Notes: generated by a model from the sequence alone, not told the origin. Numbered from the stretch's first letter, positions 33,462 to 41,666 are shown. The stretch is DNA of 64,000 nucleotides from Candidatus Peregrinibacteria bacterium (GCA_963708185.1 OY970195.1:1373034-1437033), one strand, 5' to 3'. Numbers and translations are program-made.

Positions 33462-33580
33462 GCCTAACGTTTCAGCATATGCGATATTTGCTGGTGGTAT
33501 AATAGCGAATGAAGTGAGCCACCACCAGCAAATATGGGTGAGCGAAGTGCAATGAGCGAACCGTATATGCCGTGTTAGCG
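33462..33580. repeat. attC-like recombination site 1 (atypical)
   Basis: GCCTAAC...GTTAGCG ends; nested inverted repeats GCATATGCG/CGTATATGC and ATATTTGCTGGTGG/CCACCAGCAAATAT. Confidence 0.75.
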
Positions 33581-33684
33581 GGTGTACATTTCTTTATGAA
33601 ATCTTTTGAGTACGGGAGCCACTTAACTCTATTGATTTACTGCCTCCAGCAATAGTATATTGCTGTTGTATTAATGTAAAAAAT

Positions 33685-34023
33685 ATGGTTGCTCTCAAAC
33701 GAATATATGAAAAATCCGAAATGGGTGATGGTTATAGAATTTTGGTTGATAGATTGTGGCCACGAGGTGTTTCGAAAGAGAAGGCCGCTTTGAATTTGTG
33801 GCTCAAAGATGTTGCGCCGTCAAATGAACTCCGCGCATGGTTTGGGCATGACCCACAAAAATGGTCGGAATTTAAAAAACGGTATGAAAAAGAACTTGCG
33901 ACCAATGTTGTTTTTGGCGAGCTGAAAAGTATTATTAAAAAGAGAAAAAATGTCACGCTCCTTTATGCAGCTAAAGATGAGGAACATAACGAAGCAGTTG
34001 TATTGAGGGATCTTGTATCATAA
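33685..34023 (+). CDS. DUF488 (YeaO-like) family protein
   Basis: KRIYE...DGYRILVDRLWPRGVSKE...APSNELR.WFGHDP. Confidence 0.9.
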   Translation: MVALKRIYEKSEMGDGYRILVDRLWPRGVSKEKAALNLWLKDVAPSNELRAWFGHDPQKWSEFKKRYEKELATNVVFGELKSIIKKRKNVTLLYAAKDEEHNEAVVLRDLVS

Positions 34024-34044
34024 CGGAAAAGTACATATTGAAGC

Positions 34045-34971
34045 ATGATTTCCATTCAAAAAAACGTTTCGCTCAAAGAGCTCACAACTTTTAAGCTTGG
34101 GGGTGTTGCCGACTATTTTATTTCAGCTGGTAATCCTGAAATCTTACACGAGGCGCTCGTTTGGGCGCGCGAGCGGCAACAGCAGGTTTTTATATTTGGC
34201 GGAGGGAGTAATCTCCTCGTCAGTGATTCAGGTTTCAGAGGAACGGTTATTCAATATACGAACAAGTCTATGAATATCGACAATACCATGATTCACGTGG
34301 CTTCAGGTTGTTTGCTTTTGGATCTGGTAAATTTCGCTGGGGCGTCCGGCCTGTCGGGATTGCAAAACCTAACCGGTGTCCCTGGCACGGTCGGTGGCGC
34401 TGTCCGTGGCAATGCTGGTGCATTTGGGGTGGAGATGAAAGATATTGTCTCCGAAGTTATTGCCTTACATCAGTTCACGGGCAAAATAAAGACATTTACC
34501 GTTCAGATGTGTGAATTTGGATACCGGGATAGTTATTTTAAGGCACACCCCGAGTGGGTTATTCTCGAAGCAACCATTACTCTTCATGTCGGCAATCGGA
34601 GAAAGATACTTGCTGATGGTGCTTCAATTCTGGCACGGAGAAACGCCAAGCAGATTCAAAATATACAGAGTGCCGGTTCAACATTTATTAACCCCGTGGT
34701 GAACGGTGGACTAAGGAAACAATTTGAAACAGAAAAAAATGTTATCTCCCATGGCGGCCGTGTGCCGGCCGGTTGGCTCATAGAAAAGGCGGGCCTTCGC
34801 GGTGTGCGTATTGGTGGTGCCAGGAGCAGTGAAATGCATCCAAATTATCTCATCAATATGGGCGAAGCGACGAGTGCCAATGTGAAAGAGTTGATTGAAC
34901 TGATCAAACAAAAGGTCACTGAAAGGTTTGGTGTCGAACTGAAAGAAGAAATCAAATATCTCGGGTACTAA
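34045..34971 (+). CDS. murB: UDP-N-acetylenolpyruvoylglucosamine reductase
   Basis: TTFKLGG.A, GGGSNLL, PGTVGGAVRGNAGAFG, FGYRDS, SAGSTF.NP. Confidence 0.9.
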   Translation: MISIQKNVSLKELTTFKLGGVADYFISAGNPEILHEALVWARERQQQVFIFGGGSNLLVSDSGFRGTVIQYTNKSMNIDNTMIHVASGCLLLDLVNFAGASGLSGLQNLTGVPGTVGGAVRGNAGAFGVEMKDIVSEVIALHQFTGKIKTFTVQMCEFGYRDSYFKAHPEWVILEATITLHVGNRRKILADGASILARRNAKQIQNIQSAGSTFINPVVNGGLRKQFETEKNVISHGGRVPAGWLIEKAGLRGVRIGGARSSEMHPNYLINMGEATSANVKELIELIKQKVTERFGVELKEEIKYLGY

Positions 34972-35031
34972 TGGACAACATATTGTTCTTTTAAAAAACT
35001 GATCGAAGGAAAGAAGAGAAAAATGTATTTC

Positions 35032-35145
35032 ATATAACGTTTCGCACTGGGCGAAGTTTTGTGCTGGTATAATGTGCCGAAGGCCACCAGCGCAAAATTT
35101 GGGTGGAGTGAGTCATCGAACGGAACCGCCTAGTGCGTGTTAGCT
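35032..35145. repeat. attC-like recombination site 2 (atypical, same family as site 1)
   Basis: ATATAAC...GTTAGCT ends; CGCACTGGGCG/CGCCTAGTGCG and TTTTGTGCTGGT/ACCAGCGCAAAA stems. Confidence 0.75.
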
Positions 35146-35208
35146 GATGTATTCCTTTTCTTTTCCGACGATAGTCGGTTGTTTTAAAAATTTTCAAATT
35201 TCTTTTTC
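35139..35208 (+). repeat. Left ~70-bp inverted repeat of cassette 1
   Basis: GTTAGCTGATGTATTCCTTTTCTTTTC...TTGTTTTAAAAATTTTCAAATTTCTTTTTC is the imperfect reverse complement of 40500-40572. Confidence 0.85.
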
Positions 35209-35209
35209 C

Positions 35210-35333
35210 GTTTTGGGTGGTGGGCAGAGGGGAATTAAAGGGGTGAATGCCCGCCACCCAAAACTCCTATTTCTTTTTCGTTTGAGGAAGGGGCAAGAGG
35301 GGAACAAAAGGGGTGAATTGCCCCTTCCTCAAA
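35210..35333. repeat. Two tandem hairpins with different stems and near-identical 21-nt G-rich loops
   Basis: Stems 35210-35226/35248-35264 and 35281-35296/35318-35333; loops GAGGGGAA(TT/CA)AAAGGGGTGAA; 70-bp period. Confidence 0.85.
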
Positions 35334-35342
35334 TAGATCATC

Positions 35343-40370: not shown

Positions 40371-40402
40371 TAACCTATTACAGGATAACCCAAAATAGGT
40401 TA
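40371..40402. promoter_or_regulatory. Putative C-box operator pair
   Basis: TAACCTATTACAGGATA and TAACCCAAAATAGGTTA 15 bp apart, just upstream of the C gene. Confidence 0.55.
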
Positions 40403-40499
40403 ATGTTCCGCCGATAGGCGGAACTCCATATATTCCCCTCATCAAAAAAGCGTTTCCGCAGCGGAGCGGAGGAAACACCATATTTCCCCTTATAAAAAA

Positions 40500-40572
40500 G
40501 AAAAAGAAATTTGAAAATTTTTTAAAACAATTGGGCGATAGCCCAGAAAAGAAAAGGAATATTTCAGCTAAC
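40500..40572 (-). repeat. Right ~70-bp inverted repeat of cassette 1, ending in the attI-like core G/TTAGCT
   Basis: Reverse complement GTTAGCTGAAATATTCCTTTTCTTTTC...TTGTTTTAAAAAATTTTCAAATTTCTTTTTC. Confidence 0.8.
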
Positions 40573-40598
40573 TCCTTTCTTTTGGTCTGGCTGGGCAG

Positions 40599-40628
40599 AT
40601 TGTAGCAGGAATGCGGGGTTTATGTGAA
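40599..40628 (-). promoter_or_regulatory. Pc-like promoter TTCACA-18-(TGn)TACAAT pointing into the cassette array
   Basis: Minus strand, about 27 bp upstream of the GTTAGCT core, divergent from the integrase. Confidence 0.55.
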
Positions 40629-40743
40629 GCAGGGGGATTTTTTAGGTTTGGTTGAGATTTTTTTCATGCTGCTGTGTGTACCGTGGTTTATAGCTGGCCT
40701 TTGGTGGGCGTAAGGGGTCCACGGGCTAGCCCTCGGCGATGAA

Positions 40744-40773
40744 TTGACGGTAAATCTTGAAGGCGGGTATAAT
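40744..40773 (+). promoter_or_regulatory. Integrase promoter TTGACG-18-TATAAT
   Basis: Near-consensus sigma70 boxes upstream of the integrase leader. Confidence 0.7.
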
Positions 40774-40778
40774 TCGGG

Positions 40779-40844
40779 TGGCAATTCCACTCTCGCAGCT
40801 TCTGCTGCCGGCCCCCATCGAGTCTTCTTTGGGGGCCATTTTTT
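40779..40844 (+). repeat. Structured leader/terminator, copy 1 (48 bp identical to 41872-41919)
   Basis: GCAGC-TTCT-GCTGC hairpin, then GGCCCCCA...TGGGGGCC-ATTTTTT. Confidence 0.8.
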
Positions 40845-40853
40845 GATATTTTT

Positions 40854-41666
40854 ATGGAGCATTTGCTGGATAAACTTGTTGATGAGCTCAAGCTTCGTGG
40901 TTTGAGCCCCCAGACCATGAAGGCCTACCGTTTGTGTGTCCGGCATTTTTTGCGTTTTTTGCTGAAGGATTTTGATGTTTTGGATGTTGAGAAGATCAAA
41001 GCTTTTTTGCTCCACCGGCAGCGGCTTGGCGCCGCCCCGCAGACGGTGAATCTGTATTTGAACGCCATCAAGTTTTTTTACCGTCATGTGATCCGTGCCA
41101 ATGTGGAAATTCCGCTTCGGTTTGCCAAGCGGCCGCAAAGGCTTCCCGTTGTTCTTACTCATGAGGAGGTGTTGCGGGTGATCGGATCTTTGAAGAATTT
41201 GAAACACAAACTGCTTATTGCTCTTGCCTATGGCGCCGGGCTCCGTGTTAGCGAGGTGGTCCATCTGCGGGTCGGGAATGTTGATTTTGAGGCGAAGCTT
41301 TTGTATGTCCGCCAGGGCAAGGGGCGGCGTGACCGGACCACACTGCTCCCGGAAAAACTTGAAAACTCTTTGAAGATTTTTTGCGGGGGCAGGGAGCCGG
41401 ATGCGTTTGTTTTTGAAAGCGAACGGGGAGGCAGGCTGACGTCACGATCCGCCCAGAAGGTTTTTGAATCGGCGCTGCGCCGCGCGGGTATTCTGAAAGC
41501 CGCCACGTTTCACAGCCTGCGCCACAGTTTTGCCACCCATATGCTGGAAAACGGCGTGGACATCCGCTACATCCAGGAGCTTCTCGGGCACCGCAATATC
41601 CGCACGACCCAGCGCTATACCCAGGTGACCGCGCTGGCACTCAAAAATCTTAAAAGTCCGCTGTGA
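40854..41666 (+). CDS. Tyrosine recombinase, integron-integrase-like (SAM-like N-domain) but lacking the IntI insertion
   Basis: LRGLSPQT..AY, LPVVLT.EEV, YGAGLRVSE, GKG, HSLRHSFATH, LLGH, RYTQV; only ~30 aa between KGxxDR and the RSAQ helix. Confidence 0.88.
   Translation: MEHLLDKLVDELKLRGLSPQTMKAYRLCVRHFLRFLLKDFDVLDVEKIKAFLLHRQRLGAAPQTVNLYLNAIKFFYRHVIRANVEIPLRFAKRPQRLPVVLTHEEVLRVIGSLKNLKHKLLIALAYGAGLRVSEVVHLRVGNVDFEAKLLYVRQGKGRRDRTTLLPEKLENSLKIFCGGREPDAFVFESERGGRLTSRSAQKVFESALRRAGILKAATFHSLRHSFATHMLENGVDIRYIQELLGHRNIRTTQRYTQVTALALKNLKSPL

Follow-up and report, generated by a model that had tools for sequence, protein, structure and literature searches.

A probable integron-type cassette platform with a short tyrosine recombinase in a bacterium of the Candidate Phyla Radiation

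Integrons, both the mobile class 1 form and the sedentary chromosomal form exemplified by the Vibrio cholerae array, are the closest known kind to the locus described here, which lies in a 64,000-nucleotide (nt) stretch of DNA from a Candidatus Peregrinibacteria bacterium (GCA_963708185.1 OY970195.1:1373034-1437033; the whole stretch is hereafter called the window). Clusters of attC sites without an integron integrase are known as CALINs, a name that reportedly goes back to Cury in 2016. The integron integrase, IntI, has a specific domain that the relevant passages of PMC9668308 and PMC8138268 treat as its defining feature and as required for activity; the former states that archaeal IntIs bear this domain, 'necessary for integron-mediated recombination', and sets six IntIs against 539 attC sites. 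PMC8138268 (Smyshlyaev et al. 2021) distinguishes a 'Cand' subgroup of Xer-related recombinases of candidate phyla, in a passage on taxa where class-specific recombinases may replace Xer, and that passage speaks of neither cassette arrays nor att sites. The phyla with integrons are listed in PMC9024848 (IntegronFinder 2), where a term search found no mention of Patescibacteria or Saccharibacteria. Integrons and attC arrays in the Candidate Phyla Radiation (CPR) are undescribed in the literature we consulted, which lay chiefly outside subscription journals and supplements, and this is not proof of absence.

Here, we describe a locus in which a short tyrosine recombinase is preceded by an attI site and by cassettes bounded by folded, attC-like sites. 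We consider it probable that this is a complete integron-type cassette platform, of a kind that is widespread in the CPR and specific to it. What is new here is the full set of attI, outward cassette promoter (Pc) and integrase, the copy of a cassette in a second organism with box-exact breakpoints, and the core that was left behind in that transfer. The original prediction, made by a model from the sequence, had proposed an integrase, a divergent Pc-like promoter, a GTTAGCT box and two related hairpin sites, and all of these are present where it placed them (Table 1).

Linkage of folded sites to a short recombinase

The recombinase keeps the catalytic residues R131, K156, H220, R223, H246 and Y255, which are invariant in an alignment with IntI1 (its sequence taken from a plasmid record), and a C-terminal ...SPL motif is common to the CPR proteins and IntI1. 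Its best models in NCBIfam are XerA_Arch (217.9 bits, cut-off 220) and the IntI model TIGR02249 (210.5 bits, cut-off 265); the latter match is split into two stretches, and PRK15417 scores 143 against a cut-off of 435. The original prediction had held that the IntI-specific segment is missing and that the enzyme would not align fully with IntI, and both points were borne out. In the alignment with VchIntIA (PDB 2A3V), chain residues 178-244 stand opposite query residues 174-197, the insertion of about 42 residues being absent, and two blocks of IntI1 (31 and 11 residues) are unmatched in the recombinase, in four CPR homologues and in two archaeal XerA-type proteins. The best matches among solved structures are the archaeal XerA entries 4A8E (E = 1e-44) and 5HXY (E = 1.7e-39), which are colinear with it over the whole length and have no insertion.

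A quick maximum-likelihood tree of 48 sequences gathers the CPR integrases in one clade, with a support of 97 by the Shimodaira-Hasegawa-like approximate likelihood ratio test (SH-aLRT), apart from three canonical IntIs (support 100) and from the host Xers (100). From these comparisons, the recombinase appears to be a sister group to archaeal XerA and IntI. A single further tyrosine recombinase, 29% identical to it, is encoded in the genome; this separate Xer is conserved in 40 of 41 related genomes, while the integrase has close homologues in a patchy 16 of the 41.

To locate the sites, we used a covariance model, R1, built from the two window sites and four pattern-found sites upstream of homologous integrases, and scanned the window together with 80 loci (81 sources, 1.04 Mb, both strands) at E <= 1. 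The scan returned 79 matches; 77 of them share the strand of the integrase, and every one of these 77 precedes an integrase gene, in 33 sources altogether. The 49 CPR-type loci have 69 sites in 224,417 upstream bases versus one in 322,759 downstream bases, and this lone downstream match is weak (E = 0.77) and on the opposite strand. Homologous integrases are thus strongly enriched for such sites, as the original prediction required. Where the upstream sequence extends to 1 kb or more, 26 of 31 loci have a site (the exceptions being L033, L053, L054, L065 and L068), and arrays of 4-7 sites, spaced 0.4-1.3 kb apart, occur at L035, L049, L051, L078 and L080. R1 sites were found in 26 of the 41 related genomes, including 14 of the 16 that bear the integrase. 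Over its own 1,437,033-base genome, the model found the two window cores and no further match; with filters off, the next best match within 28000-44000 of the window scores 8.3 bits (E = 2.1), and no third distal core was seen there.

The two window sites, described at first as attC-like hairpins, are indeed related (79% column identity), but they fold as three-way junctions and not as simple hairpins. The consensus fold consists of a box stem (nnnnAAC with GTTnnnn), a spacer, a 10-bp stem, a variable hairpin and a small third arm; the spacer is asymmetric (GTTTC vs GT), and the conserved third arm bears the GGGTGAGCG...GCGAACC motif. DNA-fold z-scores of the two cores range from -2.2 to -3.6 relative to shuffles. 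When the 79 hits are aligned, pairing holds for 93.3% of cells (31-47% in slid controls) and 393 cells have changes on both sides (124 +/- 8 in shuffles), the pairing being inflated because the model itself guided the alignment. On the integrase-sense strand, 68 of the 79 sequences have G-T at two pairs; the complementary strand would have A-C mismatches there, so the integrase-sense strand is probably the one that folds. Beyond the boxes, the cassette ends form inverted repeats, at least 14 of 20 positions matching in 19 of 62 cases compared with 0.7% of mismatched controls, and there is a recurrent GATGT/GAAAT asymmetry beside the box. With their third arm and extended terminal repeats, the sites appear to have a grammar of their own, in agreement with the original prediction. 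Classical attC sites are not known to have such an outer stem or conserved internal arm.

Transfer of cassette 1 and the probable crossover position

The attI box reads GTTAGCT in the cassette sense. The window's own closed genome (G000) and two genomes of the same genus (G001 and G002) can be aligned solely from CTAAC/TCCTTTC toward the integrase (here and below, a slash inside a box marks the breakpoint or junction), and the other side is unrelated; related genomes therefore vary exactly from the AAC of the attI box outward, as had been predicted. In 22 of the 33 sources, the right box of the last site recurs, as its exact reverse complement, in the interval separating the site from the integrase gene. 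Its distance to the start codon is 90-282 nt in 19 of these 22, and an attI motif follows it in 17 of them, with the consensus TCGTTTCTATGCGAA (TCCTTTCT in this window), which resembles the left half of the attC core. Of the 33 sources, 19 thus have a conserved junction of the form nnnnAAC/TC... at 90-282 nt before the integrase gene. The distance from attI to the start codon is 90-150 nt at most loci; in this genome and in G001, G002 and G023, an extra module of about 200 nt lies between attI and the integrase gene.

Neighbouring sites follow the rule of box exchange known from integrons. Of 44 pairs of neighbours, 18 have a right box that complements, at all four variable positions, the left box of the adjoining site on the integrase side, compared with 6 of 77 for a site's own two boxes and 6% for random pairs; at L049 the count is 6/6. 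Together with the conservation of attI, this exchange would place the crossover at AA/C on the integrase-sense strand (G/TT in the cassette sense), the same geometry as in the bottom-strand recombination of classical integrons. Cassettes have a median length of 842 nt, and 54 of the 63 carry their longest open reading frame (ORF) on the strand opposite to that of the integrase. In cassette 1, the complement between the cassette start and its attC box, which the original prediction had noted, is a perfect match, although it is not confined to 7 nt: it opens an inverted repeat of about 76 nt (35139-35214 vs 40494-40572).

Cassette 1 has a near-identical copy elsewhere. Window positions 35121-40572 match a metagenome contig (L122, from a 321-kb record) at 99.63% over 5454 nt. 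The contig has a GC (guanine plus cytosine) content of 0.27-0.42 and no other similarity to the window's genome, and for these reasons we take it to belong to a different organism. The unit sits there inside an array of six R1 cores, with cores on both sides. At the right breakpoint, AGCTAAC/, L122 continues into another core (also present in L063) and the window into attI; at the left breakpoint, GT/GTTAGCT, the adjoining core is only 67% identical (90/134 columns). Among the runs X1-X4, which we examined as Logan contigs, a 20,864-nt contig of X1 matches 35137-40572 with 12 differing letters and two gaps, and its flanks are unlike those of the window. These breakpoints show that an entire defence block was recently transferred from one host to another, unrelated one, at the box triplets and without its attC core. 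The canonical cassette picture of the original prediction holds in that a near-identical unit is bounded by boxes in another array, but not in that the unit moved without its core. Crossover at the left box alone is insufficient to explain this: either the right box is also used or the cores were replaced secondarily. The right box might come into play, for instance, through folding of the opposite strand or through a mechanism that acts on duplex DNA.

An all-against-all search for near-identical units in different arrays yielded one informative pair, that of the window and L122. A DNA search of 400 genomes of the phylum found no second copy of the cargo and one 67% match over the cyclase gene. 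We discarded the 'skip' joints in contigs (35215 to 40502 and 35260 to 40445, for example), as their sides of 20-29 letters fall in highly repeated modules and come from other cassettes.

The L122 copy can also be read as the work of a Xer-type enzyme acting on duplex boxes at both ends of the cargo, with the folded cores as scaffolds or accessory sites and the units exchanged or inverted. That copy breaks at both boxes and leaves the core, the units carry long terminal inverted repeats, and their end modules flank differing cargo in 16 of the 400 phylum genomes; the enzyme, moreover, aligns colinearly with XerA, whose substrate is duplex dif, and is without the IntI segment that reads extrahelical bases. 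The sites themselves argue for a folded substrate: their stems covary as the sequence drifts, pointing to selection on the fold, their G-T pairs are strand-specific, and their polarity is constant (77 of 79 on the integrase strand). The flanks of the boxes, too, are direct repeats (GAAAC ... GAAAT) and not the inverted arms of a usual duplex core, and the unit-without-core pair is the single one found. We regard action on duplex boxes as unlikely.

On the integron-type reading, the short recombinase without the IntI insertion would stand beside attI as the catalyst of cassette recombination, with the outward promoter facing the cassettes. Its substrate would be the folded integrase-sense strand, as suggested by the constant polarity and the G-T pairs, with crossover at nnnnAA/C on that strand and possibly at the right box as well. 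The third arm or the long outer stem may replace the recognition otherwise provided by the IntI insertion, and in a circularised cassette the terminal inverted repeats would extend the palindrome far beyond the length of a classical attC. The array here would then consist of a recently acquired, low-GC defence cassette of 5.4 kb followed by the DUF488/MurB-like cassette, and the platform may still be active. All of these catalytic steps we infer from comparison of sequences. A further-reaching version is that the CPR has its own phylum-wide class of integron, possibly ancestral, in which the sites supply the specificity through their third arm and long outer stem, so that the XerA-like enzyme can do without the insertion, crossover occurs at either box, and units and cores reassort independently; we hold this only tentatively and think it somewhat doubtful as a whole. 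If true, it would mean a mechanistically distinct form of cassette capture, with whole defence systems moving between unrelated ultra-small bacteria.

Besides the fitted alignment mentioned above, several observations weigh against the integron-type reading. In cassette 2, the boxes GTTAGCG and ATATAAC are complementary at 0/4 variable positions (4/7 including the fixed AAC), so that the predicted box rule is perfect for cassette 1 and fails for cassette 2. The genes of cassette 2 are in the minority orientation, and left of 33468 there is no third core that closes the array and no inverted-repeat partner. The copy of cassette 1 has a different core, its ORFs and attC not moving as one unit. 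The quick tree leaves the branching order of the CPR clade, IntI and other short recombinases unresolved, and the evidence at the locus consists of contig and sequence comparison. G002 and G027 carry the integrase and have no R1 site. Finally, R1 sites occur in 12 of the 25 integrase-less relatives, with up to 18 in each, and canonical IntI was not found in any of the five array-bearing integrase-less genomes checked.

In these integrase-less genomes, either the array persists without its enzyme, or another enzyme acts, or the gene is unassembled. It could be argued from them that a different enzyme moves the arrays, or that these are CALIN-like remnants, and that the recombinase next to them has a housekeeping or island function of the Xer type; the filing of candidate-phyla recombinases as a Xer-related subgroup in PMC8138268 points the same way. 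Such an arrangement would leave the linkage to the integrase gene unexplained, with sites in 26 of 31 loci that are upstream and co-oriented and with a junction 90-282 nt from the start codon. A housekeeping role sits poorly with a gene found in 16 of 41 relatives beside a separate Xer in 40, and the missing IntI in all five genomes checked (0/5) speaks against a canonical integrase as the other enzyme. Many of the integrase-less genomes are also fragmented (50-250 contigs), and pieces of the integrase turn up in two of them, G013 and G006, in the latter at a contig end. We consider it very unlikely that the recombinase is a bystander, and the integron-type platform remains our preferred reading.

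Features of the locus and its chromosomal setting

Table 1. Features of the locus, in window coordinates
Feature	Position	Strand	Basis or remark
attC-like core 1, left box GCCTAAC, right box GTTAGCG	33462-33580	+	97.5 bits to R1
Cassette 2 (core 1 and cargo)	33468-35037	-	DUF488 and MurB-like
DUF488	33685-34023	+	Reads toward integrase
MurB-like reductase	34045-34971	+	Reads toward integrase; second host MurB at 32% identity
attC-like core 2, left box ATATAAC, right box GTTAGCT, three-way junction	35032-35145	+	96.9 bits to R1
Cassette 1 (core 2 and cargo)	35038-40571	-	Canonical definition; cargo unit 35137-40572
Core-proximal end module, cassette 1	35139-35333	+	First 76 nt are an inverted repeat of 40494-40572
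CD-NTase (cGAS/DncV-like nucleotidyltransferase) of a type I cyclic-oligonucleotide-based anti-phage signalling system (CBASS)	35343-36668	-	PADLOC cyclase PDLC00785, E = 1.5e-192
CBASS effector with one transmembrane segment (1-TM)	36655-37191	-	PDLC00664, E = 5.9e-62
LexA-like protein	37302-37967	+	LexA DNA-binding domain and S24 peptidase
Type II restriction-modification module	37971-40357		Methyltransferase, putative endonuclease and control protein
C5 cytosine methyltransferase	37971-39038	+	Restriction-modification module
Family-less ORF of 367 amino acids (aa), putative endonuclease	39033-40136	-	Position only
Helix-turn-helix control protein	40133-40357	-	Restriction-modification module
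attI-proximal end module, cassette 1	40402-40572	-	Terminator-like hairpins 40545-40532 and 40470-40455
attI: box AGCTAAC (40566-40572) and conserved integrase-side sequence	40566-40640		Comparative
Outward Pc-like promoter, TTCACA, 18-nt spacer, TACAAT with TG	40628-40599	-	10/12 consensus positions
Module A: decayed tRNA-like element, promoter-like site, two hairpins, T-run	40692-40848	+	Upstream of integrase gene
Integrase promoter-like site	40744-40773	+	11/12 consensus positions
Tyrosine recombinase, CPR 'XerA/IntI-like' clade, 270 aa	40854-41666	+	Phage_integrase and SAM-like N-terminal domains
Module B: intact tRNA-like element (41731-41802), promoter-like site (41821-41850), hairpin/terminator	41716-41919	+	Downstream of integrase gene

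The coordinates of the features are collected in Table 1. The Pc-like promoter lies 27 nt from the attI box, and its hexamers are kept in the same-genus genomes G001 and G002; on the strength of the consensus match and this conservation, it is predicted to face the cassettes. A promoter scan found three such sites where shuffles gave 1.8 +/- 1.4, and the hexamers by themselves therefore carry little weight. The integrase has a promoter-like site of its own, as the original prediction said, and what that prediction did not mention is the conserved terminator-like hairpin that follows it before the ATG. The terminator-like hairpins and T-run occupy 40796-40848 and end 6 nt before the ATG, and the leader stems covary among the window, G001, G002 and G023. 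The presence of a terminator in the leader suggests that the integrase may be controlled by attenuation.

The leader belongs to a direct repeat of about 150-200 nt, modules A and B, that flanks the integrase gene. Within it, a stretch of about 48 nt is identical (59 nt at 96.6%) between 40792-40842 and 41869-41919, and homologous recombination between the 48-nt copies would remove the integrase gene and leave an integrase-less array. The order within a module is a tRNA-like element, a TATAAT promoter and a small terminator-ended RNA, the 5' part of which is complementary to a hairpin arm of the tRNA-like element; the decayed tRNA-like copy of module A is at 40692-40740. The ends of the tRNA-like element resemble those of the genome's own transfer-messenger RNA (tmRNA), with a G3:U70 pair, a T arm and an encoded CCA, and a short hairpin replaces the mRNA-like part. 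The module family (model R2) is multi-copy and occurs in 17 of the 41 relatives, with at most 6 copies per genome; further copies include G000:C1:101558-101650 and the loci L128-L134.

Neither ARAGORN nor Rfam at gathering thresholds calls the element at 41731 as a tRNA or tmRNA. We dropped a tmRNA identity for it, as a lax match covers the ends of the tmRNA model only (33.5 bits against a gathering threshold of 47) and ordinary tRNAs score about equally on that model. A tag-peptide reading of the small RNA was likewise dropped, because frames and stops vary among the copies. Between module B and a tRNA-Val gene lies an ORF of 253 aa (41941-42702, minus strand) with no Pfam, NCBIfam or PADLOC match. 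By ARAGORN, the window's own closed genome has 45 tRNA genes, and tRNA-Asn is not among them.

The window cassettes are atypical, one being 5.5 kb long with genes in mixed orientation and the other reversed. The LexA-like protein of cassette 1 is an accessory paralogue, with a 28%-identical homologue elsewhere in the genome. The core-proximal end module contains two related hairpin units (35204-35263 and 35274-35333). The end modules, which hold hairpins and A/T-rich tracts, are shared beyond this locus: taken as 35121-35333 and 40402-40577, they recur at 76-100% identity around other cargo in the phylum genomes noted above, where the attI-side module stops at the box. Their coverage in the groundwater metagenome runs X2 and X3 is hundreds to thousands-fold.

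The host is a member of the CPR (Patescibacteria) with a closed genome of 1,437,033 bases and an overall GC content of 0.50; the named relatives nearest to it are metagenome-assembled genomes of Candidatus Peribacteria and Peregrinibacteria. GC is 0.35-0.45 across 33-41 kb of the window, compared with about 0.52 on both sides, and 0.35-0.40 in the cassettes. In a synteny comparison, the same-genus genome G003 has about 64 bp, adjoining tRNA-Arg, in place of window positions 29833-42986.

Such a replacement beside a tRNA gene and the low regional GC are what an ordinary genomic island at tRNA-Arg or tRNA-Val would give, with the hairpins as unrelated repeats or terminators. Within the window, however, neither the tRNA-Arg nor the tRNA-Val sequence is repeated over more than 11 nt, so the 13-kb insertion is not bounded by tRNA 3' ends, and the integrase of G002 is elsewhere on the chromosome. 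Box exchange, the attI junction and the arrays of relatives are not features of tRNA islands either, and we find this explanation highly improbable.

What is missing at the syntenic site of G003 is the whole platform together with tRNA-Val and five small minus-strand genes, for an F420-type oxidoreductase, DUF1801, RibD_C, YdeI/OmdA and a small membrane protein. In G002, the integrase occupies a different chromosomal place, and there too a DUF1801 gene (65% identity) lies at a distance of about 6 kb, on which ground the platform itself may move together with some neighbouring genes. A second low-GC stretch (0.32-0.41) covers window positions 1-8500, ends at tRNA-Trp (8417-8490), and may be another island.

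Comparison with known systems

An apparently active cassette system without the IntI domain would show that there is another route to recombining folded att sites, and it would offer a simpler enzyme for mechanistic and synthetic-biology work. Surveys based on IntI hidden Markov models would undercount integron-like capture in the CPR, which makes up a large share of bacterial diversity. A CBASS/restriction-modification cassette of 5.4 kb that is 99.6% identical in unrelated hosts provides direct evidence that these arrays traffic complete anti-phage systems. The transfer of a unit without its core, together with the end modules, also opens a concrete way into the old question of how cassettes come to be built with their sites.

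The archaeal XerA proteins (Pyrococcus abyssi 4A8E and Thermoplasma acidophilum 5HXY), dimer resolvases acting on dif, resemble the recombinase in being colinear with it. A gene for XerA-type dimer resolution would be expected to be near-universal, single-copy and above the model cut-off; the gene described here, in contrast, is below the cut-off, patchy, accompanied by a separate conserved Xer and located near cassette arrays instead of a single dif. The 'Cand' simple tyrosine recombinases, as far as the passage on them goes, are likewise short, related to Xer and found in candidate phyla.

Like CALINs, arrays of the same sites occur without a recognisable integrase in some relatives; unlike them, the present locus has an integrase-like gene, though one below the IntI criterion, and could therefore be filed as a CALIN or missed.

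The integrons share most with this locus. They too have a tyrosine recombinase beside attI and a divergent outward promoter, and mostly single-gene, co-oriented cassettes with exchange of box halves between neighbours; the attC-like sites here resemble their imperfect palindromes with boxes of the RYYYAAC/GTTRRRY type, in which structure is kept over sequence. Judged by comparison of sequences, the attI and the array with its Pc appear to have the integron form. The IntI score of the recombinase is nearly as good as its XerA score, but it lacks the insertion, the IntI-specific domain near patch III. The sites differ from classical attC in their extra conserved third arm, internal motif and long outer stem, and the cassettes differ from integron cassettes in their cassette-specific terminal inverted repeats of tens of nt and their widely shared end modules. 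In the canonical integron cassette, ORF and attC move together, whereas cassette 1 appears to have moved without its core.

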